Shown here: piece by piece, positions 28,386 to 46,713 of the stretch
Layout of the letters: each line of letters starts with the position of its first letter
Position numbering within the stretch: position 1 is the first letter of the stretch
Assembly (NCBI GenBank): GCA_011051715.1
Contig: DRKP01000006.1
Span: 12,729 to 76,728, forward strand
Direction of reading: 5' to 3'
Length of the DNA: 64,000 bases
Source: Sedimenticola thiotaurini
GTDB taxonomy: Bacteria > Pseudomonadota > Gammaproteobacteria > Chromatiales > Chromatiaceae
Position numbers and translations under genes: made by a program
The notes under the pieces: generated by a model
What the model saw: the letters and a program-made list of their open reading frames with translations, nothing else
Database searches by the model: none
Told to the model about the DNA's origin: nothing

Positions 28386-28479
28386 GGCTGTTTTCTCCCC
28401 CCGGCGCCCGGGCCGGGACTATACTTGTCTGCTGTGGAGGGGGCAGGGGCGGCTGCCCGCTGCGCCCGGGACCGGCCAC

Positions 28480-28508: not shown

Positions 28509-28660
28509 ACGGCGATGCCCCCACTGCGTACAGGGGCAAAGATATTCTGGAAAAGGATAGCGGATTAGAACGGAAATCCGTCATAAAAAACAACCCTTCG
28601 TGGAGTTCGCGGCATGGCCGACTCACCGCTTCACGATCACCTGTTAAGGAGATTCTTATC

Positions 28661-29140
28661 ATGATGAGGTCGCTCTCCATCTCGGTGGACAAATGTACCG
28701 GATGCCGGCAGTGCGAAATGGCCTGTTCCTATGAGCACGAGGGGGTGTTCAACCCGGCCCGGTCCCGTATCAAGGTGTTCGCGTTCGAAAGCGAGGGACG
28801 TTTCGTCCCCTACACCTGCACCCAGTGCGACGACGCCTGGTGCCGTAATGCATGTCCCACCGGGGCGATCGGGATCAACACCGCCACCGGCGCCAAGGAG
28901 GTCGACGACGGGCTCTGCGTGGGTTGCAAGGTCTGCACCATCGCCTGCCCGTTCGGCACCATCAACTACAACCCCGCCACTGGCAAGGTGATCAAGTGCG
29001 ACCTGTGCGGCGGCGATCCGGCCTGCGCCCGCGCCTGCCCGACCCAGGCGATCACCTATGTGGATGCCGACGCCACCGGCTACGAGCGCATGCGCGCCTG
29101 GGCCGGGCGCACCGACAACGCCACCGCGGCACAGGTCTGA
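28661..29140 (+). CDS. aorA: 4Fe-4S multi-cluster ferredoxin-like electron-transfer subunit (AorA-like)
   Basis: Four Cys clusters: CTGCRQCEMAC, CTQCDDAWCRNAC, CVGCKVCTIAC and CDLCGGDPACARAC. AGGAG RBS. Confidence 0.85.
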   Translation: MMRSLSISVDKCTGCRQCEMACSYEHEGVFNPARSRIKVFAFESEGRFVPYTCTQCDDAWCRNACPTGAIGINTATGAKEVDDGLCVGCKVCTIACPFGTINYNPATGKVIKCDLCGGDPACARACPTQAITYVDADATGYERMRAWAGRTDNATAAQV

Positions 29141-29156
29141 ACAGGAGAGCGAACCC

Positions 29157-31004: not shown

Positions 31005-31147
31005 GTGCCGGTAGCCCCCGCAGGGCGTTTCCACCGCCGGGTCGCCGGGAATGCAGAGACGGGGACGATCCCATGATCGCCGCCTCTGAATTCCCGGCGC
31101 CCGCGCGGGTGCCTCTGTGGTGACAGTCCGATAACGGAGAACAGCTC

Positions 31148-32398
31148 ATGCACTATGTGATCATCGGTGCGGGACCGGCCGGGGTGACCGCCGCCGAGAC
31201 CCTGCGCAGCAGGGATCCGGAGGGCAGCATCACCCTGATCGGCGACGAGCCGGAACCGGCCTATTCGCGCATGGCCATCCCCTACCTGCTGGCGGGTGAC
31301 ATCGGGGAGGAGGGGACCTGGCTGCGTCATGGCGACGACCATTTCGACAACCTGGGCATCCAGCGGGTGCAGGACCGGGTCACCGCCATCGACAGCGGGG
31401 CCCGCAACCTGACCCTGGCGAGCGGGGGCGGGCTCTCGTTCGACCGCCTGCTGCTGGCCTCCGGTTCCGAGGCGGTCAGTCCCCCCATCGCCGGTCTGGA
31501 CCAGCCCGGCATCCACCACTGCTGGACCCTGGAGGATGCCCGCCACATCATGGAGCTGGCCCGGGAGGGGAAACGGGTGGTGCTGATGGGGGCCGGGTTC
31601 ATCGGCAGCATCATCATGGAGGCACTGGCCCGCCGTGGCGTCGAGTTGACGGTGGTGGAGGCGGGCGACCGCATGGTGCCGCGGATGATGGACCGGACCG
31701 CCGGCGGCCTGATCGGACAGTGGTGCCGTTCGAAGGGGGTGACGGTGCGCACCTCCACCCGCATCACGGCGGTGAATGCCGACCCGGGCGGATCGTTCCG
31801 CTTCCTGCTCGAGTGTGATCCCGGGGAAGCGCTGCCGGCGGACCTGCTGGTGGTGGCCACCGGCGTGCGCCCGCGACTGGACTATCTCCGGGGCAGCGGC
31901 ATCGACACCGACAGCGGCGTGCTGGTGGACGGGCGGCTGCAGACCTCGGTGCCGGGCATCTATGCCGCCGGTGACGTCTGCCAGGGTCACGACTGGGGCA
32001 GCAGCGACCGCAGTGTCCACGCCATCCAGCCGGTGGCGGTCGAGACCGGCCGGCTGGCGGCGATCAACATGAGCGGCGGCGAGGTGCGCCATCAGGGCAG
32101 TATGGACATGAACGTGCTCGACGCCCTGGGCCTGATCTGCACCTCCTATGGCCGCTGGATGGGGGTCGATGGCGGCGATTCCGCCGAGCTGCTGGATGCC
32201 GACCGCTACCGCTACGTCAAACTGCAGTTCGAGGAAGACCGCCTGGTGGGGGCCATCACCCTGGGACGAACGGAACAGGTGGGGGTGTTGCGGGGTCTGA
32301 TCCAGAGCAGGGTCCGGCTCGGCCCCTGGAAGGCGCGGCTGCAGCAGGATCCCAACCGCATCATGGAGGCCTACCTGGCATCGACCCAGTCATTCTGA
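31148..32398 (+). CDS. aorC: FAD/NAD(P)-binding pyridine nucleotide-disulfide oxidoreductase (AorC-like)
   Basis: VIIGAGPAGVTAAE, VVLMGAGFIGSIIMEAL and AAGDVCQ motifs. Confidence 0.85.
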   Translation: MHYVIIGAGPAGVTAAETLRSRDPEGSITLIGDEPEPAYSRMAIPYLLAGDIGEEGTWLRHGDDHFDNLGIQRVQDRVTAIDSGARNLTLASGGGLSFDRLLLASGSEAVSPPIAGLDQPGIHHCWTLEDARHIMELAREGKRVVLMGAGFIGSIIMEALARRGVELTVVEAGDRMVPRMMDRTAGGLIGQWCRSKGVTVRTSTRITAVNADPGGSFRFLLECDPGEALPADLLVVATGVRPRLDYLRGSGIDTDSGVLVDGRLQTSVPGIYAAGDVCQGHDWGSSDRSVHAIQPVAVETGRLAAINMSGGEVRHQGSMDMNVLDALGLICTSYGRWMGVDGGDSAELLDADRYRYVKLQFEEDRLVGAITLGRTEQVGVLRGLIQSRVRLGPWKARLQQDPNRIMEAYLASTQSF

Positions 32399-32411: not shown

Positions 32412-32660
32412 ATGCGTGTCACGTTCAAACTCTATGCCTCCCTGGCCGAACACCTGCCGGCCACCGCCGACGGCCACCAGGCGGTGCTCGAGGTACCGGA
32501 CGATACCACCCCGGTGCAGCTGCTGGAGCACCACGGCGTGCCGCTGGCCCAGGTCCATCTGGTCCTGGTCAACGGCGTCTTCGTGCCGCCGGGCGAGCGT
32601 GAGCAGCCGCTCAGCGAGGGAGACGAACTGGCGGTGTGGCCGGCGGTGGCCGGTGGCTGA
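32412..32660 (+). CDS. MoaD/ThiS-family small sulfur-carrier-like protein
   Basis: 82 aa, beta-grasp-like, ending in the diagnostic C-terminal GG (WPAVAGG). An alternative GTG lies at 32403. Confidence 0.75.
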   Translation: MRVTFKLYASLAEHLPATADGHQAVLEVPDDTTPVQLLEHHGVPLAQVHLVLVNGVFVPPGEREQPLSEGDELAVWPAVAGG

Positions 32661-34359
32661 GGAGGTGGCGGGTCCGGAGCAGCGCTTCTGCGAGATCCTG
32701 CTGCAGGAGGGCCTGGTGGACCAGGCCGGGCTGGAACGGGCGCGCCGTGCGCGGGAGGAGCTGGGTGGCGCCCTGGACGATATCCTGGTCAAGCTCGGTT
32801 TGATCGGCGAACAGGACCGCGCCCGCGCCCACTCCATCCAGCACACTGTCCCCCTGGCGTCGAAGAAGGACTATCCCTCCACTCCGCTGTTTGCCGACCA
32901 GGTGTCGCCCGGATTTCTGGCCAAGTCCCGCATCCTGCCACTGCGCGAGGACGAAGAGGGGGTCGACCTGGCGATGGTCGATCCCGGTGACGACTACGCC
33001 ATCCGGGCGATGGCCCTGCTGGCGGGCAAGCCGGTGCGGCCCTGGGCCGGCACGGCGAAGGAGATCGAGGACGCGCTGCAGGAGTTGTACGGGGACGGCG
33101 GCAGCGCCATGGACCGGATCATCGCCGATGCCGGCAGCGACGGGCCGGACGAGGCGGAGGAGGACCTGGAACGGCTCAGGGACCTGGCCAGCGAGGCCCC
33201 CGTCGTGCGCCTGGTCAACTCCCTGTTCCTGCGCGCCTACGAGCAGCGCGCCTCGGATATCCACATCGAGCCCTCGGAACGCCATCTCGGTGTGCGCCTT
33301 CGTGTCGATGGCGTGCTGCGCGAGGTCGAGCCGGTGCCGAAACGGCTGGCGGCGGCGATCGTCTCGCGGATCAAGATCATGGCGCACATGGATATCGCCG
33401 AGCGGCGCCTGTCCCAGGACGGCCGCATCCGGATGCGGGTACGCGACCAGGAGATCGACATGCGGGTCTCCACCGTGCCCACCCTGTTCGGCGAGAGCAT
33501 GGTGCTGCGGCTGCTGGAACACGGCACCGTGGACCTGGATTTCGACGCGCTCGGCATCGAGCCGGCGATCCTGGCCCATATCGAGGAGGCCCTGGCCGGG
33601 CACCACGGCATCCTGCTGGTGACCGGCCCCACCGGCAGCGGCAAGACCACCACGCTCTATACCGCGCTCAAGTACCTCAACTCACCGGAGCGCAAGATCA
33701 TCACCGTGGAGGACCCGATCGAGTACCAGCTGGAACGGGTGACCCAGATCCAGGTGAACCCGGACATCGGCCTGACCTTCGCCAATGTCCTGCGCTCCAT
33801 CGTGCGCCAGGACCCGGATGTGATCATGATCGGCGAGATGCGCGATCTGGAGACCGCCGAGATCGCGGTGCAATCGGCCCTCACCGGTCATCTGGTGCTC
33901 TCCACCCTGCATACCAACGATGCCGCCGGCGCCATCACCCGGCTGCTCGACATGGGGGTGGAGGACTACCTGCTCACCTCCACCGTCAACGGCGTGCTGG
34001 CCCAGCGGCTGGTGCGCGCCCTCTGCCGGGAGTGTCGCCAGGACTGGGAGGCCCCGCCCGAGCTGGTGCAGCGGATGCAGTTGCGGCGTTTCACCGGCGA
34101 TGAGCCGGTCCGGCTCTACCGCCCGGGGGGCTGTGACGCCTGCTCCGGGCTGGGCTACCGTGGCCGGATCGGGATCTTCGAGTTCCTGCCGGTGGACGCC
34201 GCCATCCGCTCTCTGATCCTGCAGCGGAGCGATTCCGACACCATCCACCGGGCAGCGGTGGAGCAGGGCATGACCACCCTGTTCGACGACGGCCTGCGCA
34301 AGGTACTGCAGGGGCTGACCAGCATCGAGGAGGTGCTGCGCGTGACGCGGCAGCACTGA
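32653..34359 (+). CDS. gspE: Type II secretion system ATPase GspE
   Basis: T2SSE N-domain, Walker A GPTGSGKTT, Asp and His boxes, and the tetracysteine motif CRECRQ...CDACSGLGYRGR. There is no in-frame ATG near the N-terminus. The start is probably the GTG at 32653 (or 32665), overlapping the MoaD-like stop. Confidence 0.9.
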   Translation: MAEEVAGPEQRFCEILLQEGLVDQAGLERARRAREELGGALDDILVKLGLIGEQDRARAHSIQHTVPLASKKDYPSTPLFADQVSPGFLAKSRILPLREDEEGVDLAMVDPGDDYAIRAMALLAGKPVRPWAGTAKEIEDALQELYGDGGSAMDRIIADAGSDGPDEAEEDLERLRDLASEAPVVRLVNSLFLRAYEQRASDIHIEPSERHLGVRLRVDGVLREVEPVPKRLAAAIVSRIKIMAHMDIAERRLSQDGRIRMRVRDQEIDMRVSTVPTLFGESMVLRLLEHGTVDLDFDALGIEPAILAHIEEALAGHHGILLVTGPTGSGKTTTLYTALKYLNSPERKIITVEDPIEYQLERVTQIQVNPDIGLTFANVLRSIVRQDPDVIMIGEMRDLETAEIAVQSALTGHLVLSTLHTNDAAGAITRLLDMGVEDYLLTSTVNGVLAQRLVRALCRECRQDWEAPPELVQRMQLRRFTGDEPVRLYRPGGCDACSGLGYRGRIGIFEFLPVDAAIRSLILQRSDSDTIHRAAVEQGMTTLFDDGLRKVLQGLTSIEEVLRVTRQH

Positions 34360-34362
34360 GCC

Positions 34363-35580
34363 ATGCCGTTGTTCCGCTACCGATCGATCGCGCCGTCGGG
34401 CGAGCTGACCGAGGGGGAGATGCAGGCGGCGGCGGAGGCCGCGGTGATCAGCCACCTGAAGGAGATCGGGCATCTGCCGGTACGGGTGGAGCCCACCGTT
34501 GAGCAGCGCCGGCAGGCGGGTCCCGGGCTGTTCCGGACGCGCCGGCTGCTGACCCGCGGCCAGCTGGCGGTACTGACCCGCGAGCTGGCGCGCCTGGTCG
34601 GGGCCGGCGTCTCCCTGGAGCGCTCCCTCGGCATCCTCGAGGAGGTGGCGGAGACGGAGGCGGAGCGGCTGCTGCTGTTGCGCCTGGTGGAGGCGATCCG
34701 CGCCGGATCCAGCTTCGCCGATGCCGTCGAGGCGGAGGGCGCGCCGTTCGGCCGGCTCTATGTCAGCATGGTACGGGCCGGCGAGGAGGGTGGCGCGCTG
34801 CCGCTGGTGCTGGACCGCCTGGCCGGCTATCTGGAGGAGTCCCAGGCGTTTCGCGCCGACATCGGTGCGGCCCTGATCTATCCGGTGATCCTGCTGCTGG
34901 TATCGGTGGTGTCGCTGGTCCTGCTGCTGACCCTGGTGGTGCCCCAGTTCCAGCGCATGTTCGACGAGGCCGGTGCCCTCCTGCCCCTGCCGACCCGGAT
35001 CGTGATCGCCCTCGGCGACTGGATGCAGCAGTACTGGTGGACCCTGCCGGTACTGGCGCTGGTGGGCCTGCTCGGTGTCCCCCGACTGCTGGAGCGGCCG
35101 CGTATCCGCCTCGCCTGGGACCGGTTTCAGCTGCGCCTCCCGCTGCTGGGTCCACTGATCCGGAAGATCGAGGTGGCCCGCTTCTGCCGCACCCTCGCCA
35201 CCCTGCTCGGCAACGGCGTGCTGCTGCTGCCGGCGCTCGGCATCGTGCGCGAGACCCTGGGCAACCGGGCCCTGGCGGAGTCGGTGGGGCGGGTGGCGGA
35301 GCGCCTGAAGCGGGGTGAGACCCTGTCCGGGCCGATGCTGGAGGAGGGCCGGTTTCCCAGGCTGGCCTGCCACATGGTCAGGGTGGGGGAGGAGACCGGA
35401 CGGCTGGAGACGATGCTGGTGGACGTGGCGGACATCTATGACCGCGAGGTGCGCCAGGGCCTGAAGAAGATGCTCGGCCTGCTCGAACCGCTGCTGATCC
35501 TGGTGCTCGGTGTACTGATCGCCGGCATCATCTTCTCCATCCTGCTGGCGCTGTTGAGCCTCAACGAACTGGCGTTCTGA
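34363..35580 (+). CDS. gspF: Type II secretion system inner-membrane platform protein GspF
   Basis: Two T2SSF repeats (LARLVGAGVSLERSL / FCRTLATLLGNGVLLLPAL). 405 aa. Confidence 0.92.
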   Translation: MPLFRYRSIAPSGELTEGEMQAAAEAAVISHLKEIGHLPVRVEPTVEQRRQAGPGLFRTRRLLTRGQLAVLTRELARLVGAGVSLERSLGILEEVAETEAERLLLLRLVEAIRAGSSFADAVEAEGAPFGRLYVSMVRAGEEGGALPLVLDRLAGYLEESQAFRADIGAALIYPVILLLVSVVSLVLLLTLVVPQFQRMFDEAGALLPLPTRIVIALGDWMQQYWWTLPVLALVGLLGVPRLLERPRIRLAWDRFQLRLPLLGPLIRKIEVARFCRTLATLLGNGVLLLPALGIVRETLGNRALAESVGRVAERLKRGETLSGPMLEEGRFPRLACHMVRVGEETGRLETMLVDVADIYDREVRQGLKKMLGLLEPLLILVLGVLIAGIIFSILLALLSLNELAF

Positions 35581-36187
35581 CCCTCTCCTGCCGCGGCGGC
35601 TCCGATGCCGGACGGGCGGTCGCCCGCCCCCGGGGGCGGCTCGGCAGCGGTGTCCGCCGCCCGGCCTGGTCGAGCCGGTCGTCGTTCAGCTTCAGCACGT
35701 CGGTGGCGGCGCCGCGGCCCAGCACCACCTGGCGCGCATCGATCCGCCGCACCCGCCACTCCCCCAGCGAGTCGCCCTCCCTGACCCGGACCGCCGGGCC
35801 CCGGCCTCCCGCGGGCCGGAGGATCGCCAGTCTCTCTTCAGCCGTGACCACGATGCCCACCACCAGGAAGGGCCCACCGCCGGGCCGAGCCGATGAGGGG
35901 GAGGTCGCCCCCTCCTGTGCCGGTGACGGGGACTGGTGCGGGGTGCGGTCGGGGGTGAACAGGGGGTGTTCGACCACTGCAGCGAAATCACCGACAGGTG
36001 GCGACGCCACGACCGGTCCGGCGACGGTGCCGGTATCGCCGGTGCCGCCTCCGTCCGCGGCCCGACGGTCTCCGGCCACCGGGAGCGGCTGCTGCGGCCG
36101 GGTCAGGACCTGGTACAGCCGGAACGAAAGGAACGTGGCCAGGGCCACCAGCAGAAGGGTCCCCAGCCAGTGCAGCGCGCGTGCCAT
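35561..36187 (-). CDS. T2SS GspC/GspN-like protein (single TM + PilP-like HR domain)
   Basis: TM helix WLGTLLLVALATFLSF, Pro/Gly-rich linker and beta-rich FLVVGIVVTAEERLAILRPAG...VREGDSLGEWRVRRIDARQVVL. The start abuts the gspM stop (TGATG). The 3' end overlaps the gspF 3' end by 20 nt. Confidence 0.6.
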   Translation of the reverse strand: MARALHWLGTLLLVALATFLSFRLYQVLTRPQQPLPVAGDRRAADGGGTGDTGTVAGPVVASPPVGDFAAVVEHPLFTPDRTPHQSPSPAQEGATSPSSARPGGGPFLVVGIVVTAEERLAILRPAGGRGPAVRVREGDSLGEWRVRRIDARQVVLGRGAATDVLKLNDDRLDQAGRRTPLPSRPRGRATARPASEPPRQERVRTPVR

Positions 36188-36780
36188 CACTCCTTCCCCC
36201 GGCGGCGATAGCCGGCCACTTCCAGCGTCACCCGCAGCCGGTCCGGACCCTGTTCCGGCGGCCGGCCCTCCCGGCTTCGGCGAAAAGGGAGGCGACGCTG
36301 CTTCGAGCGCCGGATCCCGGCCTTCTCCACCAGCAGGAGGGGACGGCCGTATTCGATCCGGTAGAGTGCCTTCTGCAGCACCTCCACACTGCCGCTGAAG
36401 CGGGCGCGGGCAGTGAGCCGCTCCATCGCACCATCGGCCGATGTCGTCAACAGCTGGGTGCTCTCCAGGCGGCCGCCGGCGTCCTGCACGATCTCCTTCA
36501 GCCGCTCCTGCAGGGCGGCGCCGGCGATGGCGCTGCTTTCGCCCTGCAGCAGTTCCTCCCCCGTCCCCTGTTGCCGCTGCAGCTGCGCCAGGCGCGCCTT
36601 CAGTCGGGGGACGCGATCGGCCGAGCGCTGGTAGCGATCGAGCCGGAAGCGCAGGTCGGCGATCGACTCGTCGTAACCGCGGGAGACCGTCAGCACGGGT
36701 GCCACCAGCAGGGTGATCCCGGCACCCGCCGTCAGCAGGAGCAGGAGCAGCGCGAGCAGCTTTCCGCCGATGCGGTTCAC
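36187..36780 (-). CDS. gspM: T2SS GspM-like (PilO-like) protein
   Basis: N-terminal TM LLALLLLLLTAGAGITLLV, a coiled coil and an alpha/beta C-domain. GTG start overlapping the gspL stop (GTGA). Confidence 0.65.
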   Translation of the reverse strand: MNRIGGKLLALLLLLLTAGAGITLLVAPVLTVSRGYDESIADLRFRLDRYQRSADRVPRLKARLAQLQRQQGTGEELLQGESSAIAGAALQERLKEIVQDAGGRLESTQLLTTSADGAMERLTARARFSGSVEVLQKALYRIEYGRPLLLVEKAGIRRSKQRRLPFRRSREGRPPEQGPDRLRVTLEVAGYRRRGKE

Positions 36781-37865
36781 TGCGCCCCTCCGCCGCTGAC
36801 CAGGGCGCCGATCTGGAAGCGTTCCCGTCCGGAGCGTGCATCCTGCACCACCGGAGCCCGAAAACCGGCCTGTTCGAGGCGGGGCGAGTTCTCGATCACG
36901 CTGATCAGGTTGGCCGCCCGGGAGGAGAGGCCGGACAGGATCAGCCGGTCATCCGCCAGATCCAGTGCCTCCAGCCAGGTGTCCCGGGGCAGCGTCCTGC
37001 TCAGTTCGTCCAGGATCGCCAGCGCCGGCAGCCGCTGCCGGCGGGCCGTTGCCAGTACCTCCGCCTCCAGCTCCAGACGCCGCACCCGGTCGCGCAGCCG
37101 GCGGGCCACCTCGGCCCTGGCGCGGGCGCTCTCCACCCGGGCCTGGAGCAGTGACTCCGTATCCGCCTGCCGGACCAGGTGGGCGGCGACCAGGCCCGCG
37201 CCCAGCAGCAGACAGAGCCACACCAGGAACCGGTTGAGCCGTTGCGGCAGGGAACGGCGGGGGGAGCGGGCGGTCCCCAGCAGATCAAAGCGGGGTGGCT
37301 GCAGCTCGTCCCCGTCGGTGAAATCGACCCGGTCCGGTGTCAGTCCCCGGGCCTCGGCCCGGCGCACCGCCTGTTGCAGCACCTGCAGCGGGGTCAGATA
37401 GACATCGACCCGAAGCAGGCCGCGGCCGGGATCCCGCTCCGCGACGCGGCAGGCGAAGCCGACCTGTTCCGGTGGATAGGGGGAGATCGAATCCAGCTGG
37501 TAGCGCACCACCTGGCGCAGCTCGTGTTCAGCGCTCAGGGGCAGGTCCAGACGCCGCTTCAGTCCGGAAGCCGCGGCCAACCGGAGCACCACCAGGGGGG
37601 CACCCCTCCGCGCCTGCCGGATCAGCGGTGCGTCCCGGGACGGCCGGTCGGTGAGCTGCCCAAGCAGCCGCCCGCGTCCGTGGCGAAGGCGGTAGAGCCT
37701 GGGTGCGGGTCCGTCGTCCAGGATCAGCAGCAGATTGCCCGCCGCCCCGCCGCCGGACCACGGCAGCCCGGGCAGCAGGCCGCGCAGCTCCCGGCCCCAC
37801 CAGCCGAGGAAGCGGCGGAAGTGGCCCCGTTCCGGCCCGGCCCCAATCGTCCCGCTCTGGTTCAT
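36777..37865 (-). CDS. gspL: T2SS GspL-like protein (cytoplasmic GspL/PilM-like domain, TM, PilN-like periplasmic domain)
   Basis: FRRFLGWWGRELRGLLP N-terminus, central TM FLVWLCLLLGAGLVAA and C-terminal TWLEALDLADDRLILSGLS. ATG at 37865 overlaps the gspK stop (ATGA). Confidence 0.65.
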   Translation of the reverse strand: MNQSGTIGAGPERGHFRRFLGWWGRELRGLLPGLPWSGGGAAGNLLLILDDGPAPRLYRLRHGRGRLLGQLTDRPSRDAPLIRQARRGAPLVVLRLAAASGLKRRLDLPLSAEHELRQVVRYQLDSISPYPPEQVGFACRVAERDPGRGLLRVDVYLTPLQVLQQAVRRAEARGLTPDRVDFTDGDELQPPRFDLLGTARSPRRSLPQRLNRFLVWLCLLLGAGLVAAHLVRQADTESLLQARVESARARAEVARRLRDRVRRLELEAEVLATARRQRLPALAILDELSRTLPRDTWLEALDLADDRLILSGLSSRAANLISVIENSPRLEQAGFRAPVVQDARSGRERFQIGALVSGGGAQ

Positions 37866-38794
37866 TCCCCTTCTCTCCGGGGTTCCCAGCTGCCGCGGGG
37901 AAACCAATCCAGTACCCGGTATCCCCTCCCGCCCCCTCTGCCGCCCAGCCAGATCACCATTCGCCGGTGGGTGACGGCGCCGGAGGGCAGCCGGGCCCTC
38001 CCGGTGACCGTGTAGACCGGACCGGAGGCACGGGCCAGCCAGCGCCCGAGACCGGCCAGGGAGGCGAGCGGCGGCGCCGGGTCACCCGTGGACGCCGTCC
38101 CCCGCTGCGCCACCGCCTCGTCCACATCGGCCGGGTCCGCCTCCGGGATCGCGAGCAGCACCTGCCGTGGCGCGGTCAGCGGATTGATCCGGCCATCGAT
38201 GCCGTGGACGGTGACCAGGGGCAGCAGCCGCCGGTACAGCAGATCATCCATGCCCAGCACCTGTTGCAGCTCCTGCACGCTGGGAAAGGGGCGGTCGGGC
38301 GGCAGGCCGGGGCGGCCGGCGGCAGCGTAGTCCGCCCCCTCGGCACCGTTCAGCCGCCGTGCGTCGTCGCTGTCGCGCCAGTCCAGAATGGCGTCGCTGA
38401 GGGAGGCGGTTCGCTCCGGGGGCAGTTCCAGGGAACCGAGCAGGCCGCCGATCAGCTCCGCCGGCGCCCGGTTCAGATCGACCTTGCCACGTTCGTCCTC
38501 GATCCGGTAGGCCAGCTCCGCACCGTCCAGGGTGAACCGCTGTTCCCGTCCCGGCAGCAGCAGCCGGTAGCGTTGCCCCGGGGGCATGGTCAGCAGATCG
38601 TACAGGCCCTTGTGGATCGCCGCCCGGGCCAGCTCCGTCGCCTGCAGCGCCTCCAGCCGGTGGAGACCGATGCGAACCCCGCTGCGCATGCTGCGGGAGA
38701 AGCCGAAGGCCATCACCGACAGCAGTACCAGCAGCCAGAGGACGATCACCAGGGCCACTCCGGCCTGACAGCGCCGTTCTTTCACCGTCTTCAC
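37862..38794 (-). CDS. gspK: T2SS minor pseudopilin GspK
   Basis: GVALVIVLWLLVLLSVMA hydrophobic N-terminus without the conserved Glu5, GKVDLNRAP, and SLSDAILDWRDSDD / LQQVLGM helix-hairpin-helix-like motifs. GTG at 38794 overlaps the gspJ stop (GTGA). An alternative ATG lies at 38812. Confidence 0.8.
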   Translation of the reverse strand: MKTVKERRCQAGVALVIVLWLLVLLSVMAFGFSRSMRSGVRIGLHRLEALQATELARAAIHKGLYDLLTMPPGQRYRLLLPGREQRFTLDGAELAYRIEDERGKVDLNRAPAELIGGLLGSLELPPERTASLSDAILDWRDSDDARRLNGAEGADYAAAGRPGLPPDRPFPSVQELQQVLGMDDLLYRRLLPLVTVHGIDGRINPLTAPRQVLLAIPEADPADVDEAVAQRGTASTGDPAPPLASLAGLGRWLARASGPVYTVTGRARLPSGAVTHRRMVIWLGGRGGGRGYRVLDWFPRGSWEPRREGE

Positions 38795-39486
38795 TGGAGC
38801 TTCCAGCGGCACAGTCCGCCGAGGGCGGGGGAGAGGCAGCTGCCGTCCATGTCGATGACCGGCCGCACCACCAGCTCGGGCCAGTGGCCGTCATCCTGAT
38901 CCCCGGACGAGAGTCGGATCAGGGCCGGGGGAGCAGCCCCCTCGTCCCAGTGATCGCGCCAGGAGAGGGGGGGCTCCTCCTGCCGGCCGGCGGCATAGCC
39001 GAAGCGGAGCGGGGTACCGGACTCGGCCACCAGCCGCGCCTCCGCACCGGCCAGCTGCGCCTCCGGCGGGGTGCGGGGATCGAACAGCCGCCGTTTCAGC
39101 CACAGCTGATCACCACGCTCCGTCGTCTCGATGTACAGCTCCAGCAGATACAGGCCGCCCTGCCCTGGATAGGGCGGGAGGAAGGCGGCGAAGCGCAGCC
39201 GCTTCGGCCCGCCCGAGAACAGGTAGCGGGTGCCGGCCGGACCGGACCCGGTCAGCGGAAAGGCGTGACCGGCCAGGTCAACCAGCACCCGCTGCGCCAG
39301 CTGCAGGTCGGACGACTCGCGACCGACCCGCTCTCCCGCATCCCAGGCGCGGGTGGTGTACCGGATGCCCCCCAGCAGCAGGCCGAGGGCGACGACGAAG
39401 AGGGTGATGGCGATCATGACCTCGATCAGGGTGAAACCGGAGACCGCCGGCGTGTGACCCCGCTGGCCGGATCGTTTCCTCTTCAT
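38791..39486 (-). CDS. gspJ: T2SS minor pseudopilin GspJ
   Basis: Prepilin motif VSG/FTLIEVMIAITLF. 231 aa. ATGA overlap with gspI. Confidence 0.75.
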   Translation of the reverse strand: MKRKRSGQRGHTPAVSGFTLIEVMIAITLFVVALGLLLGGIRYTTRAWDAGERVGRESSDLQLAQRVLVDLAGHAFPLTGSGPAGTRYLFSGGPKRLRFAAFLPPYPGQGGLYLLELYIETTERGDQLWLKRRLFDPRTPPEAQLAGAEARLVAESGTPLRFGYAAGRQEEPPLSWRDHWDEGAAPPALIRLSSGDQDDGHWPELVVRPVIDMDGSCLSPALGGLCRWKLQ

Positions 39487-39884
39487 GACCGGCCGCCCAG
39501 GCGGAGTGTCTGCAGGGTCACCTCGCCCCCGCCACCGTCCCGCTGCCAGCGGATCTGCAGACGGATCCGGTACAACTTCGCTCCGTCGCCGCCCGTTTGC
39601 CCGCTGCCGGCCAGTGGTTCCGGCGCCGGCTGGATGGCCATGCGCCAGCGCATGCCGTCGTTCGATCCGCTTCGCTGCTCCTCCCGCAACACCGGTTCGG
39701 CATCCAGCCGGGCGAGCAGGGAGGTGGCCAGTGTCACGGCCCGGCCGTGGGCCGCCGTGCGTCCGCTGGCGGCCACGCCGGTGGAGAAGATCTGCAGGAT
39801 CAGCGCCAGCGCCATGGCCAGCAGCACGAAGGCGACCAGTACCTCCAGCAGGGAGAACCCGCGCTGTCCGTGGGGGGGGCTCAA
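39483..39884 (-). CDS. gspI: T2SS minor pseudopilin GspI
   Basis: Prepilin motif QRG/FSLLEVLVAFVLL. 133 aa. TTG start overlapping the gspH stop (TTGA). Confidence 0.75.
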   Translation of the reverse strand: MSPPHGQRGFSLLEVLVAFVLLAMALALILQIFSTGVAASGRTAAHGRAVTLATSLLARLDAEPVLREEQRSGSNDGMRWRMAIQPAPEPLAGSGQTGGDGAKLYRIRLQIRWQRDGGGGEVTLQTLRLGGRS

Positions 39885-40447
39885 TCTGGATTCTCCCCCC
39901 TGACGGTGATCCGGCCGGTGAGCCAGTCCACCGCGATCAGGAATCCGCGCCCGCCGCGGGTCAATTCGATGCGGCCGCCGGTGGAGGAGCCGTCCGGAAA
40001 AAAGCGGATCGAGGCGTGAGCGGCATCCGGCCGCTCCGATTCCGCCGTCGTCATCTTCACCGTGATCGCGGGGTCGAGAACGATGGTGTGATCGCGGCCG
40101 CTGGTCCCGAAGTGCCGTCGTTCCAGGTCCAGCCCGAAGCGCTGGTCACGACCGCGGGAGATCGCCAGGGACCGGGTGAGACGCAGCCCCGCGGCGACGC
40201 GGGCGGCCGTGCCGCGCAGGCCGGCACCCGCCACCCCGCCGGAGAAACGGGTCGGGAGCAGGACCAGGATGCCGATCAGCAGGGTCAGTGCGATCAGCAG
40301 TTCGACCAGTGAGAAGCCACCGCCGGCACGCGGGAGCGTGCCGCCAGCCGGTGCCCCGCGAAGCAGCGGGTCAGGGACGGATATCGGCGTTCTCTCCTTC
40401 ACCACCTTCCGTATCGTCCGCGCCGAGGGAGAAGAGGTCGTAGTCAC
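39881..40447 (-). CDS. gspH: T2SS minor pseudopilin GspH
   Basis: Prepilin motif GGG/FSLVELLIALTLL with a GspH-like C-domain. The true start is uncertain: the GTG at 40447 overlaps gspG by 77 nt, and internal GTG/CTG starts are possible. Confidence 0.7.
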   Translation of the reverse strand: MTTTSSPSARTIRKVVKERTPISVPDPLLRGAPAGGTLPRAGGGFSLVELLIALTLLIGILVLLPTRFSGGVAGAGLRGTAARVAAGLRLTRSLAISRGRDQRFGLDLERRHFGTSGRDHTIVLDPAITVKMTTAESERPDAAHASIRFFPDGSSTGGRIELTRGGRGFLIAVDWLTGRITVRGENPD

Positions 40448-40799
40448 CCTCCTTTCCGGGATACCGGTAATGATACTCCCGGCCCCAGGGGTCGACGGGG
40501 AGCTTGCGCTTGCGCAGGTAGGGGCCGCGCCAGTTGCCGGCCCCCTCCGGCGGCTCCACCAGGGCGGCCAGGCCTTCGCGCTGCGACGGATAGCGGCCCA
40601 TGTCCAGCAGGTAGAGGTCCAGTGCCGCGGCGATCTGCTCCACCTGGAGGCGGGCGGTGTCCGCCTTGCCGCGGCTGAGATAGCCGACCACGCGGGGGCC
40701 GACCAGCCCGGCCAGCAGTCCGAGGATCACCAGGACCACCAGCAGCTCGATCAGGGTGAAGCCGCGCTGCCGAATCCGTCGTCCGTTGCGCCCAGTCAT
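40371..40799 (-). CDS. gspG: T2SS major pseudopilin GspG
   Basis: QRG/FTLIELLVVLVILGLLAGLV, LDLYLLDMGRYP, PWGREYHY. GAGGGAAGG RBS before the ATG at 40799. Confidence 0.92.
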   Translation of the reverse strand: MTGRNGRRIRQRGFTLIELLVVLVILGLLAGLVGPRVVGYLSRGKADTARLQVEQIAAALDLYLLDMGRYPSQREGLAALVEPPEGAGNWRGPYLRKRKLPVDPWGREYHYRYPGKEGDYDLFSLGADDTEGGEGENADIRP

Positions 40800-41032
40800 G
40801 CCTTCCCTCAACAACCGGAGTCTGCCATCGAAGTCGATGGGGCGAGTGTCTCACAACCGGACGGGAGTGGAACAGGAGCCGTGCGGGAAGGATGGAAGAG
40901 ATCACGTTTTTCCACTTCCGGTGAGGAGGAATGCAGTAAAAACCGGGTTTCAACCGTTATCTGCGGATCAGGTTCCCGAACGCCCGCCGCTGGCGGGGAC
41001 ACAAGGCCGCCGGACCGGTGAAGGAGACCTAC

Positions 41033-43234
41033 ATGCCACGTAAATGGATCACCTCCCTCGTTCTGCTCGCCGCTTCCGGCTGGCAGCTCTCCTGCACCGG
41101 CGTGGCGCCACGGAAACAGCCGGCGGCGGATCAGGGTGATCCCCTGGCTTCCTACTCCGTTGTTGCCGGCATGCCGGACGAACCGGGGACACCAGGCGCA
41201 CCGGCCGCAATGACCAAGGCGGCCACTTCATCCGGCAACCCGGATCGGCCACGCGCCTTCAAGGGCAGTGACCTCCTGGTGCGGGCACCCGCCACCGTCA
41301 CCCCGCCGGTGCAGCTGCAGGGCGGGGGGCTGGTGCTCAATTTCGAGAATGCCGATCTGCGGGACGTGGTGCGCACCATCCTGGGCGATTTTCTCAAGGT
41401 CGCCTATATCTACGATCCCCGGGTACAGGGCAAGGTCAGTCTCCAGACCACCCGTCAGCTGGGACCGGACGAGGTGCTGGCGACCCTGGAGACGGTACTG
41501 CGCATGAACGGCGCAGCGATGGTGCCCGCTGGGGAGAGCTACCGGATCGTGCCGGTGGACGAGGCCGCGGGCCAGACGGTTCCACAACTGGGCGATGGCG
41601 GCAGTCTCCTCGCCCCGCTGCCGGCCGGCTACCGGGTGGTGGTGGTGCCGCTTAAGTACAGTTCGGCGTTGCAGATGGAGAAGCTGCTGCAGCCGTTCGT
41701 CGGTCCCAAGAGCATCCTGCGGGCCGATGCGGACCGTAACCTGCTGGTGCTGGCCGGTACCAGCCGGGAGGTGGCAGTGCTGCTGGAGACGGTCCAGATG
41801 TTCGACGTCGACTGGCTGGCCGGCATGTCGATCGGGCTCTACCCCCTGTCCGAGGTGTCGCCGGAGAAGATGATCCCGGAGCTGGATGGCATCTTCGGCA
41901 CCGCTGCCGATGGCCCCCTGGCGGGGCTGGTCCGCTACCAGCCGATCGAACGGCTCAATGCAATTCTGGTCATCACCCCCCGTTCCTCTTACCTGGACCA
42001 GGTCGGGAAGTGGATCCGGCGTCTGGACCGGAGCTCCACCCTGGGGCAGAACCTCTACGTCTACTACCTGGAAAACGGCAAGGCGGCGGATATCGCCATG
42101 ATCCTGGAGAAGATCTTCGCCAGGGATTCCGTGCCGGAACAGGATCGCGGCCGGGTGGCACCCGGTCTCACGCCGGTGGAGGTGGTCGCCGCCGCTCCGG
42201 CCGGAACGCCGGTGGAGACCGGGAAGTCTGCACCCGGTACCGGCACGGCCGGAGCTGGCGGACGTCGCAGCGAGGGGCTCTCCTTCTCCTCCGGATCGGA
42301 CATCCGCATCATCGCCGACGAGGTGAACAACTCGCTGCTGATCCTGGCCACGCCCCAGGATCACCGCATGGTGGTGGCGGCGATCCGCAAGCTGGACATC
42401 GTGCCGCTGCAGGTGCTGATCGAGGCCACCATCGCCGAGGTGAAGCTGAACGACAGGATGCGCTTCGGCCTGCAGTGGTTCTTCAAGTCCGGCGATATCA
42501 CCGCCACCCTCAGTTCCGGTGAGACCGGCAACATCGGATCCGACTTCCCCGGCTTTTCGCTGGTGTTTGCCGGTGCCGATGCCAAGGTGATCCTGGATGC
42601 GCTGGACAAGGAGACCTCGGTCAACATCGTCTCCTCTCCGCACCTGATGGTGCTGGACAACCAGACCGCGTCGCTGCAGGTGGGCGACGAGGTGCCGGTG
42701 ATCACCAGGCAGCAGCAGAGCACGGCCACCGACGCCAACCTGGTGAATACGGTGGAGTACCGCAATACCGGCGTCATCATGAACGTGACGCCCCGGGTCA
42801 ATCCGAGCGGATCCATCATCATGGAGGTGGAACAGGAGGTGAGCAATGTGGTGCCCAGCACCGAGGAGACCCTCACCCCGACCATCAGCCAGCGCAAGTT
42901 CAAGAGTTCGGTGGTGGTCCAGTCCGGGGACACGGTGGTGCTCGGTGGACTGATCTTCGACTTCACCACCAAGCAGCGACAGGGCCTGCCGCTGCTGTCG
43001 CGTCTGCCGCTGGTCGGTGCCCTGTTCGGCTCCACAGAGAGCAACAACGACCGCACCGAGCTGGTGATGCTGATCACGCCACGGCTGGTGCGCGACCGCT
43101 ACCAGGCGAAAAAGGTGACGGAGGAGGTGAGGCGGCGCCTGCAGAGCCTGCGGCAGCTGCAGAAACAGACCATCAGGACGCCGGTGATGGACCAGGTGTC
43201 GCCACTGCGGCGGGAGGCCGGGGAGGCCCAATAG
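41033..43234 (+). CDS. gspD: T2SS outer-membrane secretin GspD
   Basis: AAGGAG RBS at 41021-41026. N0 domain LNFENADLRDVVRTILG, N1-N3 repeats and the secretin domain VLDNQTASLQVGDEVPV...GGLIFD...LPLLSRLPLVGALFG. Confidence 0.92.
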   Translation: MPRKWITSLVLLAASGWQLSCTGVAPRKQPAADQGDPLASYSVVAGMPDEPGTPGAPAAMTKAATSSGNPDRPRAFKGSDLLVRAPATVTPPVQLQGGGLVLNFENADLRDVVRTILGDFLKVAYIYDPRVQGKVSLQTTRQLGPDEVLATLETVLRMNGAAMVPAGESYRIVPVDEAAGQTVPQLGDGGSLLAPLPAGYRVVVVPLKYSSALQMEKLLQPFVGPKSILRADADRNLLVLAGTSREVAVLLETVQMFDVDWLAGMSIGLYPLSEVSPEKMIPELDGIFGTAADGPLAGLVRYQPIERLNAILVITPRSSYLDQVGKWIRRLDRSSTLGQNLYVYYLENGKAADIAMILEKIFARDSVPEQDRGRVAPGLTPVEVVAAAPAGTPVETGKSAPGTGTAGAGGRRSEGLSFSSGSDIRIIADEVNNSLLILATPQDHRMVVAAIRKLDIVPLQVLIEATIAEVKLNDRMRFGLQWFFKSGDITATLSSGETGNIGSDFPGFSLVFAGADAKVILDALDKETSVNIVSSPHLMVLDNQTASLQVGDEVPVITRQQQSTATDANLVNTVEYRNTGVIMNVTPRVNPSGSIIMEVEQEVSNVVPSTEETLTPTISQRKFKSSVVVQSGDTVVLGGLIFDFTTKQRQGLPLLSRLPLVGALFGSTESNNDRTELVMLITPRLVRDRYQAKKVTEEVRRRLQSLRQLQKQTIRTPVMDQVSPLRREAGEAQ

Positions 43235-43304
43235 TCCCCCGGGTCCGGCCTCCTGCTGGGCCGGATCCACCCGGCAACCGGTCCGTTCCTTTCCTGCAAT
43301 CAAC

Positions 43305-43339
43305 TTAAAAAAAGAGGCGCACGGCCTGCGCCGTGCGCC
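43305..43339 (-). terminator. Rho-independent terminator of the nonahaem cytochrome gene
   Basis: Perfect 10-bp stem GGCGCACGGC (43316-43325) / GCCGTGCGCC (43330-43339) with a 4-nt loop, followed on the minus strand by a U-tract (A-run 43307-43313 on plus). Confidence 0.75.
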
Positions 43340-43364
43340 CCCGGGTAACGACCAGTCCCTGTGA

Positions 43365-45836
43365 CTACAGCTTGTTTTCGTGGCAGGAGGAGCAGGTCAC
43401 CCGCTCGCCCTTTGCCAGCACGATGGTCTTGCTCCCATCCGGCTGCTTCTCGTCACTCTTCAGACTGCGCTCCGCCGCGGTACGTGACAGCACCGTGCCC
43501 TCTCCGTTCTCGCCGTGGCAGGAGCGGCAGGCGTTGGCGTTCTTCTCCGCCAGCTTTTCGTGATCCTCGGCGAACTTGGTGGCGCCGACCGGGTGCATGC
43601 CATGCGGCCCGTCGAGGGTGATGCCCAGGTCGCCCTCGTGGCAGGTGCTGCATTCGACGATGGCGCCGGTGTGGCCCTGCAGTCCCTCTGCGGTCCGGTT
43701 GTCGTTCGACCACGGGTTGGCATTGGGCCAGATGGCGTGAGTGCTGCCGTGGCAGTTCTCGCAGCTCAGCCCCTCGTGCCCCTTGCCCAGGTTATCCTTG
43801 CCACCGCTGAGGCGGTAGAGATCCTGGTTGGAGGCGAAACGGGACTCGCTGAAGTTCCACAGCGCCAGCTTGTCCGGCCCGCCGACGCTCTTGTGGTCGC
43901 TCCTGGCGTAGGCCAGTTTCAGCCGCAGGTTGTCCGGATTGCCCGCCTTGTCGGTGACGTTGAGCACCGCGTCGGTCAGCATGCCGGAACTGGCCAGCTG
44001 CTTCACCTGCAGCACATCACCCAGGTGACAGGACTGGCATTTCGGCTCCGAGGCCCAGGGTACCCGCTTGCTGAGGTCGGCGCCGTCGGGGAAGCCCGCC
44101 AGCGGGAAGTTCTCGCTGAAGTCGTCCCCGACCTGGGTCAGCTGGCCATGGCAGTCCTGGCAGACGATACCGGCATCGCTCATGGCGCCGCGCAGGCACT
44201 TGGTGCGCTTGCCCGGATGGCAGTTGTAACAGGTCTCCTGCAGCACCTCTTCCTGCTGCTGGGCGGTGCGCTCGTCCGGCAGCGGCATCAGCGGAAACAG
44301 ATGACTGTAGTCCGCATCCTGATTGAGGGCGCCGTGGTAGCCGTGCATCGCCCGGGACATGCTGATGTGCCGGGTCTGTTCCTTGCCGTTGTCATCGGTC
44401 GGACCCATGTGGGCCAGGTCCAGTGCGGGTGAGTAGTGGCAGTTGGCGCAGACCACGTTGGGGGTCGATCCGTCGGCGAAGCTGCCATCCGGATTCGGCC
44501 CCACCAGCGAGGTGCCGAACTTGAAGTCGTGCAGGCGCATGATGTTGGTCTTGGCGGCGTTGATCACCTTCTGCTCCGGCGTGTCGCCCAGGGCCAGCGA
44601 GGCATCCTCGATGAACTGCACGCTGTTGTATTCCGGTTTGCTGTTGGCGATGTCGTCGCAGACCAGGGTGTTGGTGGTATCGAAGTCACACACGTTCTGG
44701 CTGGCGTGACAGATCTGGCAGTCGGCCTCGGAGGCCACCGGCACCACCGTCTCCACCGCGGCCAGCTCGTTGCCGTCGGAGTCCCGTGCCACCACCCGCA
44801 TCAGCGGATAGGGGTTGGTCAGCCCCATGTCGTCGGTGGGCGTGATGGGAACGCCCTCGGCGGTGTACCGGTTGAAGTTCTGCACCGTGTAGCCGAACGG
44901 AAAGTTGATGAAGAAGGGCAGGTCGGCGACATAGCCATGGAACGGCTGCGGGGTGTTGCCCGGTCCCGGCATGGCGGACTGTTCCGCCTGCAGGGTGCCG
45001 CCACCGAGGTAGAGTTCGACCAGGTTGGGCGCCGGCAGGCCCGTGTCCGGCGGCAGCCCGAACATGTCCAGCACCCCTGCCGGGTAGAGGCTGTCGTAGG
45101 CGAGCACTCCGACGGGCCTGCTCTCTGGCGGGATGATCTCCCAGAAGTTGCTCTTGAAGATTCCGCCTGCCAGATCGTTCTGGCTGGTGGTGGTGATGGA
45201 GTCGCTGACCAGCGGTGGCAGGGTCGGGTCGTTCGGATCGATGACGTTCGAGGTGGTCGCCTCGTAGGTGACGCTGATTCCGTCCGCGGGACCGAGCAGT
45301 TGCGGCTCCTGGCCCTTGCGCAGCACCTGGGCGTTGAGCACGTTGTAGGGCGGCAGGATACTGAACAGCCGGTAGTCGGTGTCGGCACAATGCATGCCCA
45401 GGTCGTTGGCCGCCAGCACGGTATAGTTGCCGTTGCCCCCCGCTGGCGGCGGTGGCGGCGGATTGGGGTCTCCGGCCAGATCACAGTCGTCGGGGGCGTG
45501 CTTCACCTTCTTCTCGGCGCTTCTGCCGTCGGACTGTACCACCCGGACCCGGCAGGGTACCGGCGAGAGACCGCGCTCCTTGAACTTCCACTCGTCGTCA
45601 TCGATGGTCTGGGTGGCGATCACCTCGTGGTTGGAGGCGTACATCAGGGTGACGGTGCGCTCCTTCTTGCCCTTGCCCTTGACCGTGAGCCGTTGCTTCT
45701 CCTGGTCCCATTTCGCTTCCTTGATCTTGAAACCGTCACCTGCCAGCAGCGGTCCACTGCTGAGCAGCAGGCCGAGCAATACCGCGGCGGCAACACCCCC
45801 TCTGCCCGCTCCAGCGGGATTCGTCGTCATCTCCAT
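43365..45836 (-). CDS. Large secreted nonahaem c-type cytochrome (823 aa) with a haem-free N-terminal half
   Basis: GGAGGA RBS and ATG at 45836. Signal peptide GGVAAAVLLGLLLSSGPLLAG. Nine CxxCH motifs: CQICH, CANCH, CYNCH, CQDCH, CQSCH, CENCH, CSTCH, CRSCH and CSSCH, all after about residue 373. Confidence 0.88.
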   Translation of the reverse strand: MEMTTNPAGAGRGGVAAAVLLGLLLSSGPLLAGDGFKIKEAKWDQEKQRLTVKGKGKKERTVTLMYASNHEVIATQTIDDDEWKFKERGLSPVPCRVRVVQSDGRSAEKKVKHAPDDCDLAGDPNPPPPPPAGGNGNYTVLAANDLGMHCADTDYRLFSILPPYNVLNAQVLRKGQEPQLLGPADGISVTYEATTSNVIDPNDPTLPPLVSDSITTTSQNDLAGGIFKSNFWEIIPPESRPVGVLAYDSLYPAGVLDMFGLPPDTGLPAPNLVELYLGGGTLQAEQSAMPGPGNTPQPFHGYVADLPFFINFPFGYTVQNFNRYTAEGVPITPTDDMGLTNPYPLMRVVARDSDGNELAAVETVVPVASEADCQICHASQNVCDFDTTNTLVCDDIANSKPEYNSVQFIEDASLALGDTPEQKVINAAKTNIMRLHDFKFGTSLVGPNPDGSFADGSTPNVVCANCHYSPALDLAHMGPTDDNGKEQTRHISMSRAMHGYHGALNQDADYSHLFPLMPLPDERTAQQQEEVLQETCYNCHPGKRTKCLRGAMSDAGIVCQDCHGQLTQVGDDFSENFPLAGFPDGADLSKRVPWASEPKCQSCHLGDVLQVKQLASSGMLTDAVLNVTDKAGNPDNLRLKLAYARSDHKSVGGPDKLALWNFSESRFASNQDLYRLSGGKDNLGKGHEGLSCENCHGSTHAIWPNANPWSNDNRTAEGLQGHTGAIVECSTCHEGDLGITLDGPHGMHPVGATKFAEDHEKLAEKNANACRSCHGENGEGTVLSRTAAERSLKSDEKQPDGSKTIVLAKGERVTCSSCHENKL

Positions 45837-46143: not shown

Positions 46144-46713
46144 ATGATGAGGAGAATCCTCCTGGCAGGGCTGCTGCTGCTCCAGCCAGTGGCACTGCCG
46201 GCAGCGAACGTGGCGGGCGTCGATCTGCCCGACAGGGTGAAGCCGCAGGGGATGAAACAGACGCTGGTCCTGAACGGGGCCGGTGTGCGCAGGAAGTTCT
46301 TCTTCCGCATCTACATCGGTGCGCTCTATCTTCCGCAACCCGACTCCTCGGCCGCCGCCGTGATCGGCAGTGACGCCCCGAGCCGGGTGCTGATGCATTT
46401 CGTCTACCACGAAGTGAGCCGGGACAAGCTGACGGCCGCCTGGTGGGACGGATTCAGGGACAACCTCGATGCGGCGACACTGCGGGCACTGACACCGCGG
46501 ATCGGGAAGTTCGCCGCCCTGTTCGACGATGCCCGGGAGGGGGATCGCATCTGGCTCGACTACCTGCCGGGGCAGGGGACGCGGGTGACCGTCAACGGCC
46601 GGGTGCGGGGAGTGATTCCGGGGGCGGATTTCCACCGCGCCCTGCTGCGTATCTGGCTGGGGGACGAGCCGGTGGCGGGGGATCTGAAGCGGGCCATGCT
46701 CGGTCTTGACTGA
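46144..46713 (+). CDS. Secreted chalcone isomerase-like family protein
   Basis: Signal peptide MMRRILLAGLLLLQPVALPAA. Chalcone_3-like LVLNGAGVRRKFFFRIYIGALYL and ALLRIWLGDEPV. Confidence 0.8.
   Translation: MMRRILLAGLLLLQPVALPAANVAGVDLPDRVKPQGMKQTLVLNGAGVRRKFFFRIYIGALYLPQPDSSAAAVIGSDAPSRVLMHFVYHEVSRDKLTAAWWDGFRDNLDAATLRALTPRIGKFAALFDDAREGDRIWLDYLPGQGTRVTVNGRVRGVIPGADFHRALLRIWLGDEPVAGDLKRAMLGLD

Follow-up and report, generated by a model that had tools for sequence, protein, structure and literature searches.

A widespread nonahaem cytochrome family of sulfur-oxidising bacteria, recurrently encoded near type II secretion genes, as a candidate for export and extracellular electron transfer

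We analysed a 64,000-nucleotide stretch of a Sedimenticola thiotaurini assembly (GCA_011051715.1, contig DRKP01000006.1, positions 12,729 to 76,728 of the forward strand; hereafter the window), in which a full type II secretion system (T2SS) lies next to a gene for a c-type cytochrome of 823 amino acids (aa) with nine CxxCH haem-binding motifs. The cytochrome represents a large family, so far uncharacterised and of new architecture, that is carried by sulfur-oxidising Gamma- and Betaproteobacteria, and in a minority of the family's loci the gene lies near T2SS genes, a linkage that recurs above chance and has been easily lost in evolution. The single reading that best accommodates these observations, which we would put somewhat below an even chance, is that a T2SS may export the cytochrome, which would then transfer electrons on the cell surface or outside the cell. 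The T2SS itself is already known biology and is not new.

A nonahaem cytochrome family of sulfur oxidisers

Genes were picked by third-position G+C, the window having ~68% G+C, and then checked against Pfam and NCBIfam; a public gene call made independently on this contig, combined with Pfam, agreed with our gene set, and the same sequence is present in a 60-kb contig of the hydrothermal-vent metagenome ERZ940665 (PRJNA290104). The cytochrome gene (43365-45836, minus strand) is monocistronic and convergent with the secretin gene gspD, and its stop codon is directly followed by an intrinsic terminator on the same strand (43342-43313) with a 13-bp stem containing 10 G-C pairs, a 4-nt loop and a T7 tail. 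The N-terminus of the protein, read directly, resembles a Sec signal cleaved by signal peptidase I, with MEMTTNPAGAGRGGVAAAVLLGLLLSSGPLLA up to the cleavage point and GD after it, and has neither a lipobox nor a twin-arginine motif. Attachment of c-type haem is periplasmic, and the combination of a Sec or Tat signal with periplasmic folding is a T2SS-substrate trait that the cytochrome, judged from its sequence, would share.

The signal peptide (residues 1-33) is followed by an Ig-like beta-sandwich (37-110), a disordered poly-Pro linker (~120-135), a beta-rich domain (138-365) and a nine-haem domain (365-823). All nine CxxCH motifs found in a six-frame scan fall within residues 373-819, C-terminal to the beta domains, and an AlphaFold2 model built with a homolog alignment was confident (pLDDT 84.8, pTM 0.80). 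Across 79 aligned homologs the nine motifs are invariant, as are nine further histidines (H436, H498, H501, H687, H700, H722, H745, H748 and H759), a number sufficient for nine bis-His haems. The beta-rich domain carries the motif NDLGMHCAD, in which H149 and C150 lie and which is at least 90% conserved in the same homologs. The public NCBI call for this gene, HEB94883.1, is only 460 aa long and starts too late to include signal peptide, Ig-like domain or beta domain; the full architecture is therefore hidden in the public record.

Divergent from the cytochrome gene, across a shared intergenic region of ~300 bp, is a gene for a 189-aa Chalcone_3 (chalcone-isomerase-like) protein with a signal peptide (46144-46713, plus strand). 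A second multihaem cytochrome gene (9808-11136, minus strand) encodes a c554-like protein of 442 aa with a signal peptide and five CxxCH motifs, which has a Cytochrome_C554 domain at its N-terminus (63.8 bits) and whose C-terminal half is unassigned.

A protein search with the window cytochrome returned 1,621 clusters at E <= 0.001, the best 120 of which are 43-78% identical to it over nearly the full length. Pattern scans brought the count to more than 597 loci among species-representative genomes and to more than 577 among metagenome contigs, and NDLGMHCAD proved a strong enough motif to search with. The carriers are sulfur-oxidising Gamma- and Betaproteobacteria, including Sedimenticola and other Sedimenticolaceae, Chromatiaceae, Thiotrichaceae, Thioploca, Candidatus Thiodiazotropha and Thiolapillus, together with some Burkholderiales, Rhodocyclaceae and Casimicrobiaceae; symbionts of tubeworms (Escarpia, Lamellibrachia), lucinid clams and snails (Gigantopelta) are among them. 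Several genomes have two copies, a frequent condition in the family; examples are L142, where the copies stand in tandem at 5936-12229 right after gspD, L149, and the contig pairs L009/L022, L007/L019 and L012/L079. Roughly 16% of the 120 homologs (~19) carry a lipoprotein signal with a lipobox, in many others the signal peptide leads into a long acidic stretch, and one (P0076) contains a thrombospondin type 3 (TSP3) repeat.

The family is so far unnamed. Its members are listed in public records only as 'cytochrome C', 'cytochrome c3 family protein' or 'hypothetical protein', Pfam gives the window protein only Cytochrome_C7 and c3_2, an NCBIfam scan of it returned no family model, and our literature searches found no description of such a nonahaem family. 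Against PDB sequences, phmmer searches with the window protein and with homologs P0066 and P0070 gave no meaningful match, and a profile of the 79 family sequences matched no cytochrome at E <= 10. Foldseek searches of the PDB with the full-length model matched the N-terminal domain only, to generic Ig-like folds such as SoxYZ and adhesins, and a separate model of the haem domain (pLDDT 75.5) matched nothing at E < 1. By these sequence and model comparisons, the family does not appear assignable to NrfA, HAO, OTR, MccA or OcwA, or to the solved MtrC, OmcA, MtrF and UndA structures. OcwA, the nonahaem surface cytochrome of Thermincola potens (PMC6703420), likewise has nine c-type haems and is likewise a proposed terminal extracellular electron-transfer protein; in contrast to the window protein, it belongs to a Gram-positive host without a T2SS and is related to NrfA/OTR by description, and the PDB yielded no cytochrome to the nonahaem profile and no fold match to the haem-domain model. 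The undecahaem Uet system of Tenderiales is also different from the nonahaem family.

Recurrent linkage to type II secretion genes

To follow the gene's surroundings across the family, we fetched 160 loci, whose flanks totalled 10.4 kb on average, and compared them by tblastn with the T2SS proteins of the window and with T2SS proteins from the first matches. T2SS genes were present in the flanks of nine. In two of these (L015 and L082) the cytochrome lies directly upstream of, and co-directional with, a run of gspC-like-D-E-F-G-H-I-J-K(-L) genes, at a gap of 135-324 nt and with no convincing terminator between. In L142, gspL-M-D are followed by the two tandem cytochrome paralogs, all on one strand, and in a Rhodocyclaceae locus (L073) the cytochrome is followed by gspG and gspF. 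Three tubeworm symbionts (L029, L031 and L032) share the order gspH..M-N, an ExeA-like gspA, a gspB-like gene, a response regulator, a histidine kinase and the cytochrome, and in L109 a convergent gspD, 39% identical to that of the window, lies ~6 kb off, beyond a two-component system and a peptidyl-prolyl isomerase gene. The linked systems are of two subtypes; the L015-type GspD is only 27% identical to the window GspD, while those of L109 and L142 reach 39-43%.

For L029-32, L073 and L109, those relatives that are nearest among the ones with long flanks lack a T2SS; for L015/L082 and L142, the flanks of the nearest relatives are too short to tell whether a T2SS is present. Because the T2SS is lacking in the relatives of the former three and the cytochromes of all five lineages are divergent, we count five independent linkage events. 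As a control, 11 conserved housekeeping genes of the window, spanning 20.3 kb, matched two of the 160 loci, against the nine matched by the 10.6-kb T2SS. Under a rough model in which genes are placed at random and each ~4-Mb genome has between one and three T2SS loci, flank linkage would be expected in 0.85-2.6 loci and was observed in 5 independent lineages (P = 0.002-0.12), while immediate adjacency would be expected in 0.06-0.18 and was observed in 3 lineages (Poisson P 3e-5 to 8e-4). Rough as these estimates are, they point clearly to recurrence above chance. Chance adjacency as the sole explanation is weakened by the housekeeping control, by the independent lineages and by the Poisson estimate.

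T2SS substrates are often encoded beside their own system, as are PulA beside pul in Klebsiella, LapA beside hxc in P. aeruginosa and SslE beside gsp in E. coli. The linked cytochromes resemble these in that the gene of a (here predicted) secreted protein adjoins secretion genes, in an operon-like, co-directional arrangement in L015/L082 and L142. They differ in that PulA, LapA and SslE are hydrolases or lipoproteins whose secretion has been demonstrated, whereas secretion of the nonahaem cytochrome is predicted and its linkage is confined to a minority of lineages. In the tubeworm-symbiont loci L029 (12987-18737) and L031 (12970-19975), the cytochrome is followed by a gene for a very large secreted protein. 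Its product, which is 1,916 aa long in L029 and combines a signal peptide with beta-helix-like repeats, could be another secretion substrate.

Clustering of all open reading frames (ORFs) in 80 family loci identified a sole recurrent neighbour, a pair of genes for an OmpR-type response regulator and a histidine kinase directly upstream of the cytochrome in 13 of the 80 loci (L001, L009, L013, L029-L032, L048, L078 and others; not in the window). The nearest matches of this pair are QseBC, PmrAB and CusRS (heavy-metal sensors), all below NCBIfam cut-offs. The presence of such a QseC/PmrB/CusS-like pair in other lineages suggests inducible expression of the cytochrome, and the control may be metal- or envelope-responsive.

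The secretion locus of the window and its surroundings

The T2SS occupies positions 32653-43234 (10.6 kb) and is arranged in three transcription units. The first, on the plus strand, comprises gspE (32653-34359), encoding the 568-aa T2SS ATPase (Pfam T2SSE 474 bits, MshEN; a longer ORF begins at 32416), and gspF (34363-35580), encoding the inner-membrane platform protein with its two T2SSF repeats (180 bits). The second is on the minus strand and is transcribed in the order gspG-H-I-J-K-L-M-N/C. It opens with the major pseudopilin gene gspG (40371-40799; T2SSG 135 bits, N_methyl) and the minor pseudopilin genes gspH (39881-40402; GspH 35 bits, N_methyl below cut-off), gspI (39483-39884; N_methyl motif), gspJ (38791-39486; N_methyl motif, NCBIfam T2SS protein J at E 2e-17, below cut-off) and gspK (37862-38794; T2SSK_1st 67 bits); gspI was identified by its operon position, and the identities of gspI and gspJ rest mainly on position and weak NCBIfam matches. 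There follow gspL (36777-37865; 362 aa with a PilN-type C-terminal domain, PilN 44 bits), gspM of subtype b (36187-36780; T2SSM_b 86 bits) and a gene for a 208-aa GspC/GspN protein of XpsN-like type (35561-36187). The matches of this last protein are weak and all below cut-offs (NCBIfam GspC_delta E 7e-6, XpsN E 2e-5, pilP_fam 0.0075; Pfam XpsN rated 'weak'), and a gene stands in the same position in orthologous loci. The third unit, on the plus strand and divergent from gspG, is gspD (41033-43234), encoding the 733-aa outer-membrane secretin (TIGR02517 492.6 bits against a cut-off of 351; Secretin, three Secretin_N domains and N0).

The locus thus contains the features by which a T2SS is recognised: GspD with N0 and Secretin_N domains, GspE, GspF, GspG with H, I, J and K, and GspL, M and C/N. 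Its core components all match those of an Xps/Xcp-type T2SS with a subtype b GspM and an XpsN-like GspC, and nothing in it is unusual; compared with that type it is without gspO, gspA/B and a pilotin gene, gspA/B being found in the tubeworm-symbiont version. No Peptidase_A24 match, as expected of the prepilin peptidase GspO/PilD, was found among the ~50 window ORFs scanned. This enzyme is commonly encoded elsewhere and is common to type IV pili, so its absence is compatible with a working T2SS, and the prepilin peptidase of the window T2SS is encoded elsewhere. A six-frame CxxCH scan found no MtrA-like decahaem ORF in the window and, beside the nonahaem gene, one other multihaem ORF.

These results uphold what the first-pass annotation of the window, made from the sequence alone, had described at the level of the sequence. 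Pfam, NCBIfam and the independent gene calls agree with its placing of all core T2SS parts in one 10.6-kb locus, provided that 'complete' is read as minus the prepilin peptidase, and the sequence confirms the convergent 823-aa protein with a Sec signal, nine CxxCH motifs and a strong terminator of its own. The two scans bear out the absence of gspO and of an MtrA-like decahaem cytochrome. At 823 aa, the cytochrome is not the 'giant' protein it was called, and the pentahaem gene at 9808-11136 went unmentioned in that annotation.

The system looks general and vertically inherited, an Xps/Gsp-type T2SS belonging to a Sedimenticola-like gammaproteobacterium of hydrothermal vents. The three closest orthologs of its GspD are 64-65% identical to it, one of them in a 5.0-Mb genome, and the gene order E-F, N-M-L-K-J-I-H-G, D is identical in all three relatives. 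In these relatives (L163-L165), an ebo-type cluster encoding EboA, UbiA, TatD, a xylose-isomerase-like TIM barrel protein and a phosphodiesterase lies ~2-10 kb downstream of gspD; in the window the cytochrome takes that position.

The surroundings in the window are core chromosome, with valS, ppdK, thrS, pheST, an AsmA-like gene, moeA and a tungsten-type aldehyde oxidoreductase gene. Directly upstream of gspE lies a tungsten/molybdenum-related block (24844-32398). It includes moeA, genes for an ABC permease and a TupA-like (PBP_like_2) binding protein, a gene resembling those of aldehyde:ferredoxin oxidoreductases (29058-31004) and one for a PadH-like FAD oxidoreductase (31148-32398). Farther off, at 19372-21285 on the plus strand, a 637-aa fusion protein joins a monohaem cytochrome c domain (Cytochrome_CBB3/Cytochrom_C) to an FTR1-type iron permease, a domain combination that suggests redox-coupled iron uptake.

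Export weighed against periplasmic and catalytic roles

The sequence data show the gene content, the family with its distribution, and its recurrent adjacency to T2SS genes. We infer the export, location and redox partner of the nonahaem cytochrome, and with them a function in extracellular electron transfer (EET), any role towards minerals or electrodes and a new path across the outer membrane. In Shewanella, the cytochromes MtrC and OmcA cross the outer membrane via the T2SS (PMC3279761), and the export route proposed here is the one established for them. The pre-protein would cross the inner membrane through Sec, the nine c-type haems would be attached and the protein would fold in the periplasm, and the general T2SS would then export the folded holo-cytochrome through the GspD secretin, as it does MtrC/OmcA. 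Outside the cell or on its surface, the cytochrome would transfer electrons to an extracellular or insoluble redox partner, a surface location being compatible with the lipid anchor of some homologs. Electron transfer is proposed on the basis of the nine invariant histidines outside the CxxCH motifs. Like MtrC, OmcA, MtrF and UndA, the family consists of predicted Sec-exported multihaem c-type cytochromes in which beta domains are combined with a haem domain; as among the Shewanella outer-membrane cytochromes, some members are lipoproteins, and their genes recur near T2SS genes.

The likeness has its bounds. The nonahaem proteins hold their nine haems in one C-terminal block, whereas in MtrC-type proteins two beta-barrels alternate with the haems, of which there are 2 x 5 (or 11); there are no mtrA/mtrB-type partners in the window or among the conserved neighbours; the window protein has no lipobox, and PF22113 is not reported for it at E <= 1; and the hosts are sulfur oxidisers, where those of MtrC/OmcA are dissimilatory metal reducers. 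Neither sequence comparison nor Foldseek matched the family to the solved MtrC, MtrF, OmcA and UndA structures. PF22113, the Pfam model of the pentahaem domains II/IV of MtrC/MtrF, has its gathering score exceeded by P0066 (34.3 bits) and by P0070 (31.5 bits), other homologs staying below threshold, and may be taken as a lead towards the MtrC family, not as membership. Such membership was rejected, since the family departs from MtrC in its number of haems, its architecture and its partner genes.

Several observations weigh against export and EET. The window cytochrome does not reach the PF22113 threshold, and the model is permissive, since the pentahaem ORF at 9808-11136, which is unrelated, also scores 25 bits. 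The window protein has no lipobox. Since T2SS substrates carry no recognisable sequence signal, export is not predictable from sequence. Among the 80 clustered loci there was no conserved porin or periplasmic cytochrome neighbour, and therefore no visible electron route across the outer membrane. The chance model takes gene placement as random and genomes as ~4 Mb, and its figures are rough. The gene arrangement also counts against export, and it speaks for a second explanation, namely that the cytochrome is periplasmic, either soluble or lipid-anchored and facing the periplasm. It would there carry electrons, or act as a wire, for the respiration of sulfur, nitrogen or metals, its adjacency to gspD being a local rearrangement without function. 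We consider this nearly as likely as export by the T2SS. Cytochrome and gspD are convergent in the window, and therefore not co-transcribed, and the cytochrome has its own terminator. In 151 of the 160 loci (~94%) the flanks hold no T2SS gene, and there is essentially no conserved neighbour but the two-component pair, as would be expected for the gene of a free-standing periplasmic protein. In the three relatives with orthologous T2SS loci, gspD is followed by CinA and/or NUDIX genes and the ebo-type cluster, with no cytochrome. One of the three, the metagenome-assembled genome GCA_964544655.1, whose cytochrome (L001) is the closest ortholog among the loci listed (72% identical to the window protein), carries both genes unlinked, the T2SS on contig 16 and the cytochrome on contig 4. 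We regard the adjacency in the window as a lineage-specific arrangement. Most multihaem cytochromes of sulfur oxidisers are, moreover, periplasmic.

Against a periplasmic location stand the immediate T2SS adjacency in 3 independent lineages and linkage in ~5, above both the rough chance expectation and the housekeeping control; the co-directional, operon-like order in L015/L082 and the two paralogs after gspD in L142; and the Ig-like, TSP3 and acidic-linker decorations, which are typical of surface or secreted proteins. Searches of NCBIfam, PDB sequences and Foldseek also matched the protein to no known periplasmic enzyme family, membership of one being a result that the first-pass annotation had named as refuting its own proposal. 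That annotation had also named a lack of conservation of the T2SS-cytochrome adjacency as refuting, and the adjacency is not conserved in the nearest relatives, being absent in the three orthologous loci, that of GCA_964544655.1 included; and it had asked whether the T2SS was the housekeeping one, to which the answer is that it looks like the lineage's inherited general system. A dedicated, co-inherited T2SS-cytochrome module was rejected, given the other genes found after gspD in the orthologous loci. The proposed 'EET export module' thus finds partial support as a hypothesis about the cytochrome family, from the recurrent T2SS linkage, the lipoproteins and PF22113 in two homologs; the idea of a dedicated, conserved module is not supported.

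A catalytic function overlaps with both of these readings, since a sulfur-compound oxidoreductase, as opposed to a plain electron wire, could be periplasmic or exported. His149 and Cys150 would here serve as a haem ligand or as an active site, like the His/Cys haems of SoxA, TsdA and DsrJ, such ligation being characteristic of sulfur-oxidation cytochromes. Both residues are at least 90% conserved, and no motif outside the haem-binding ones is better conserved than theirs; the family scarcely occurs beyond sulfur-oxidising lineages; and in the confident model the beta domain appears to pack directly before haem 1. Yet nine bis-His haems would need no ligands beyond the nine invariant histidines outside the motifs, PDB searches gave no sequence or fold similarity to SoxA, TsdA, DsrJ, MccA, OTR, NrfA or HAO, and no sulfur-metabolism gene was found among the conserved neighbours of the 80 loci. 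We hold this explanation to be improbable.

In a more far-reaching reading, the family at large might be T2SS cargo, forming an extracellular or surface electron outlet for sulfur-oxidising Gamma- and Betaproteobacteria, among them Sedimenticola, Chromatiaceae, Thiotrichaceae and the chemosynthetic symbionts of tubeworms, lucinid clams and vent snails. Such an outlet would need no MtrAB/PioAB-type porin-cytochrome conduit. Its members would then act as released shuttles or as surface oxidoreductases for solid sulfur, sulfide or metal phases. This broader proposal is speculative, and we think it rather unlikely to hold in full.

The family bears on whether electrons pass between sulfur oxidisers or chemosynthetic symbionts and solids, electrodes or partner cells, and by what machinery; the known extracellular-cytochrome paradigms (Mtr, Omc, Pio/Mto and Cyc2) are mostly absent from these lineages. 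A family that is highly conserved, occurs in hundreds of species and is repeatedly linked to the T2SS is a concrete and testable candidate. Were it periplasmic, it would still be a major unannotated redox protein of sulfur oxidisers; were it exported, what holds in Shewanella, where a T2SS exports folded holo-cytochromes, would extend to a structurally unrelated protein and to a different physiological guild.

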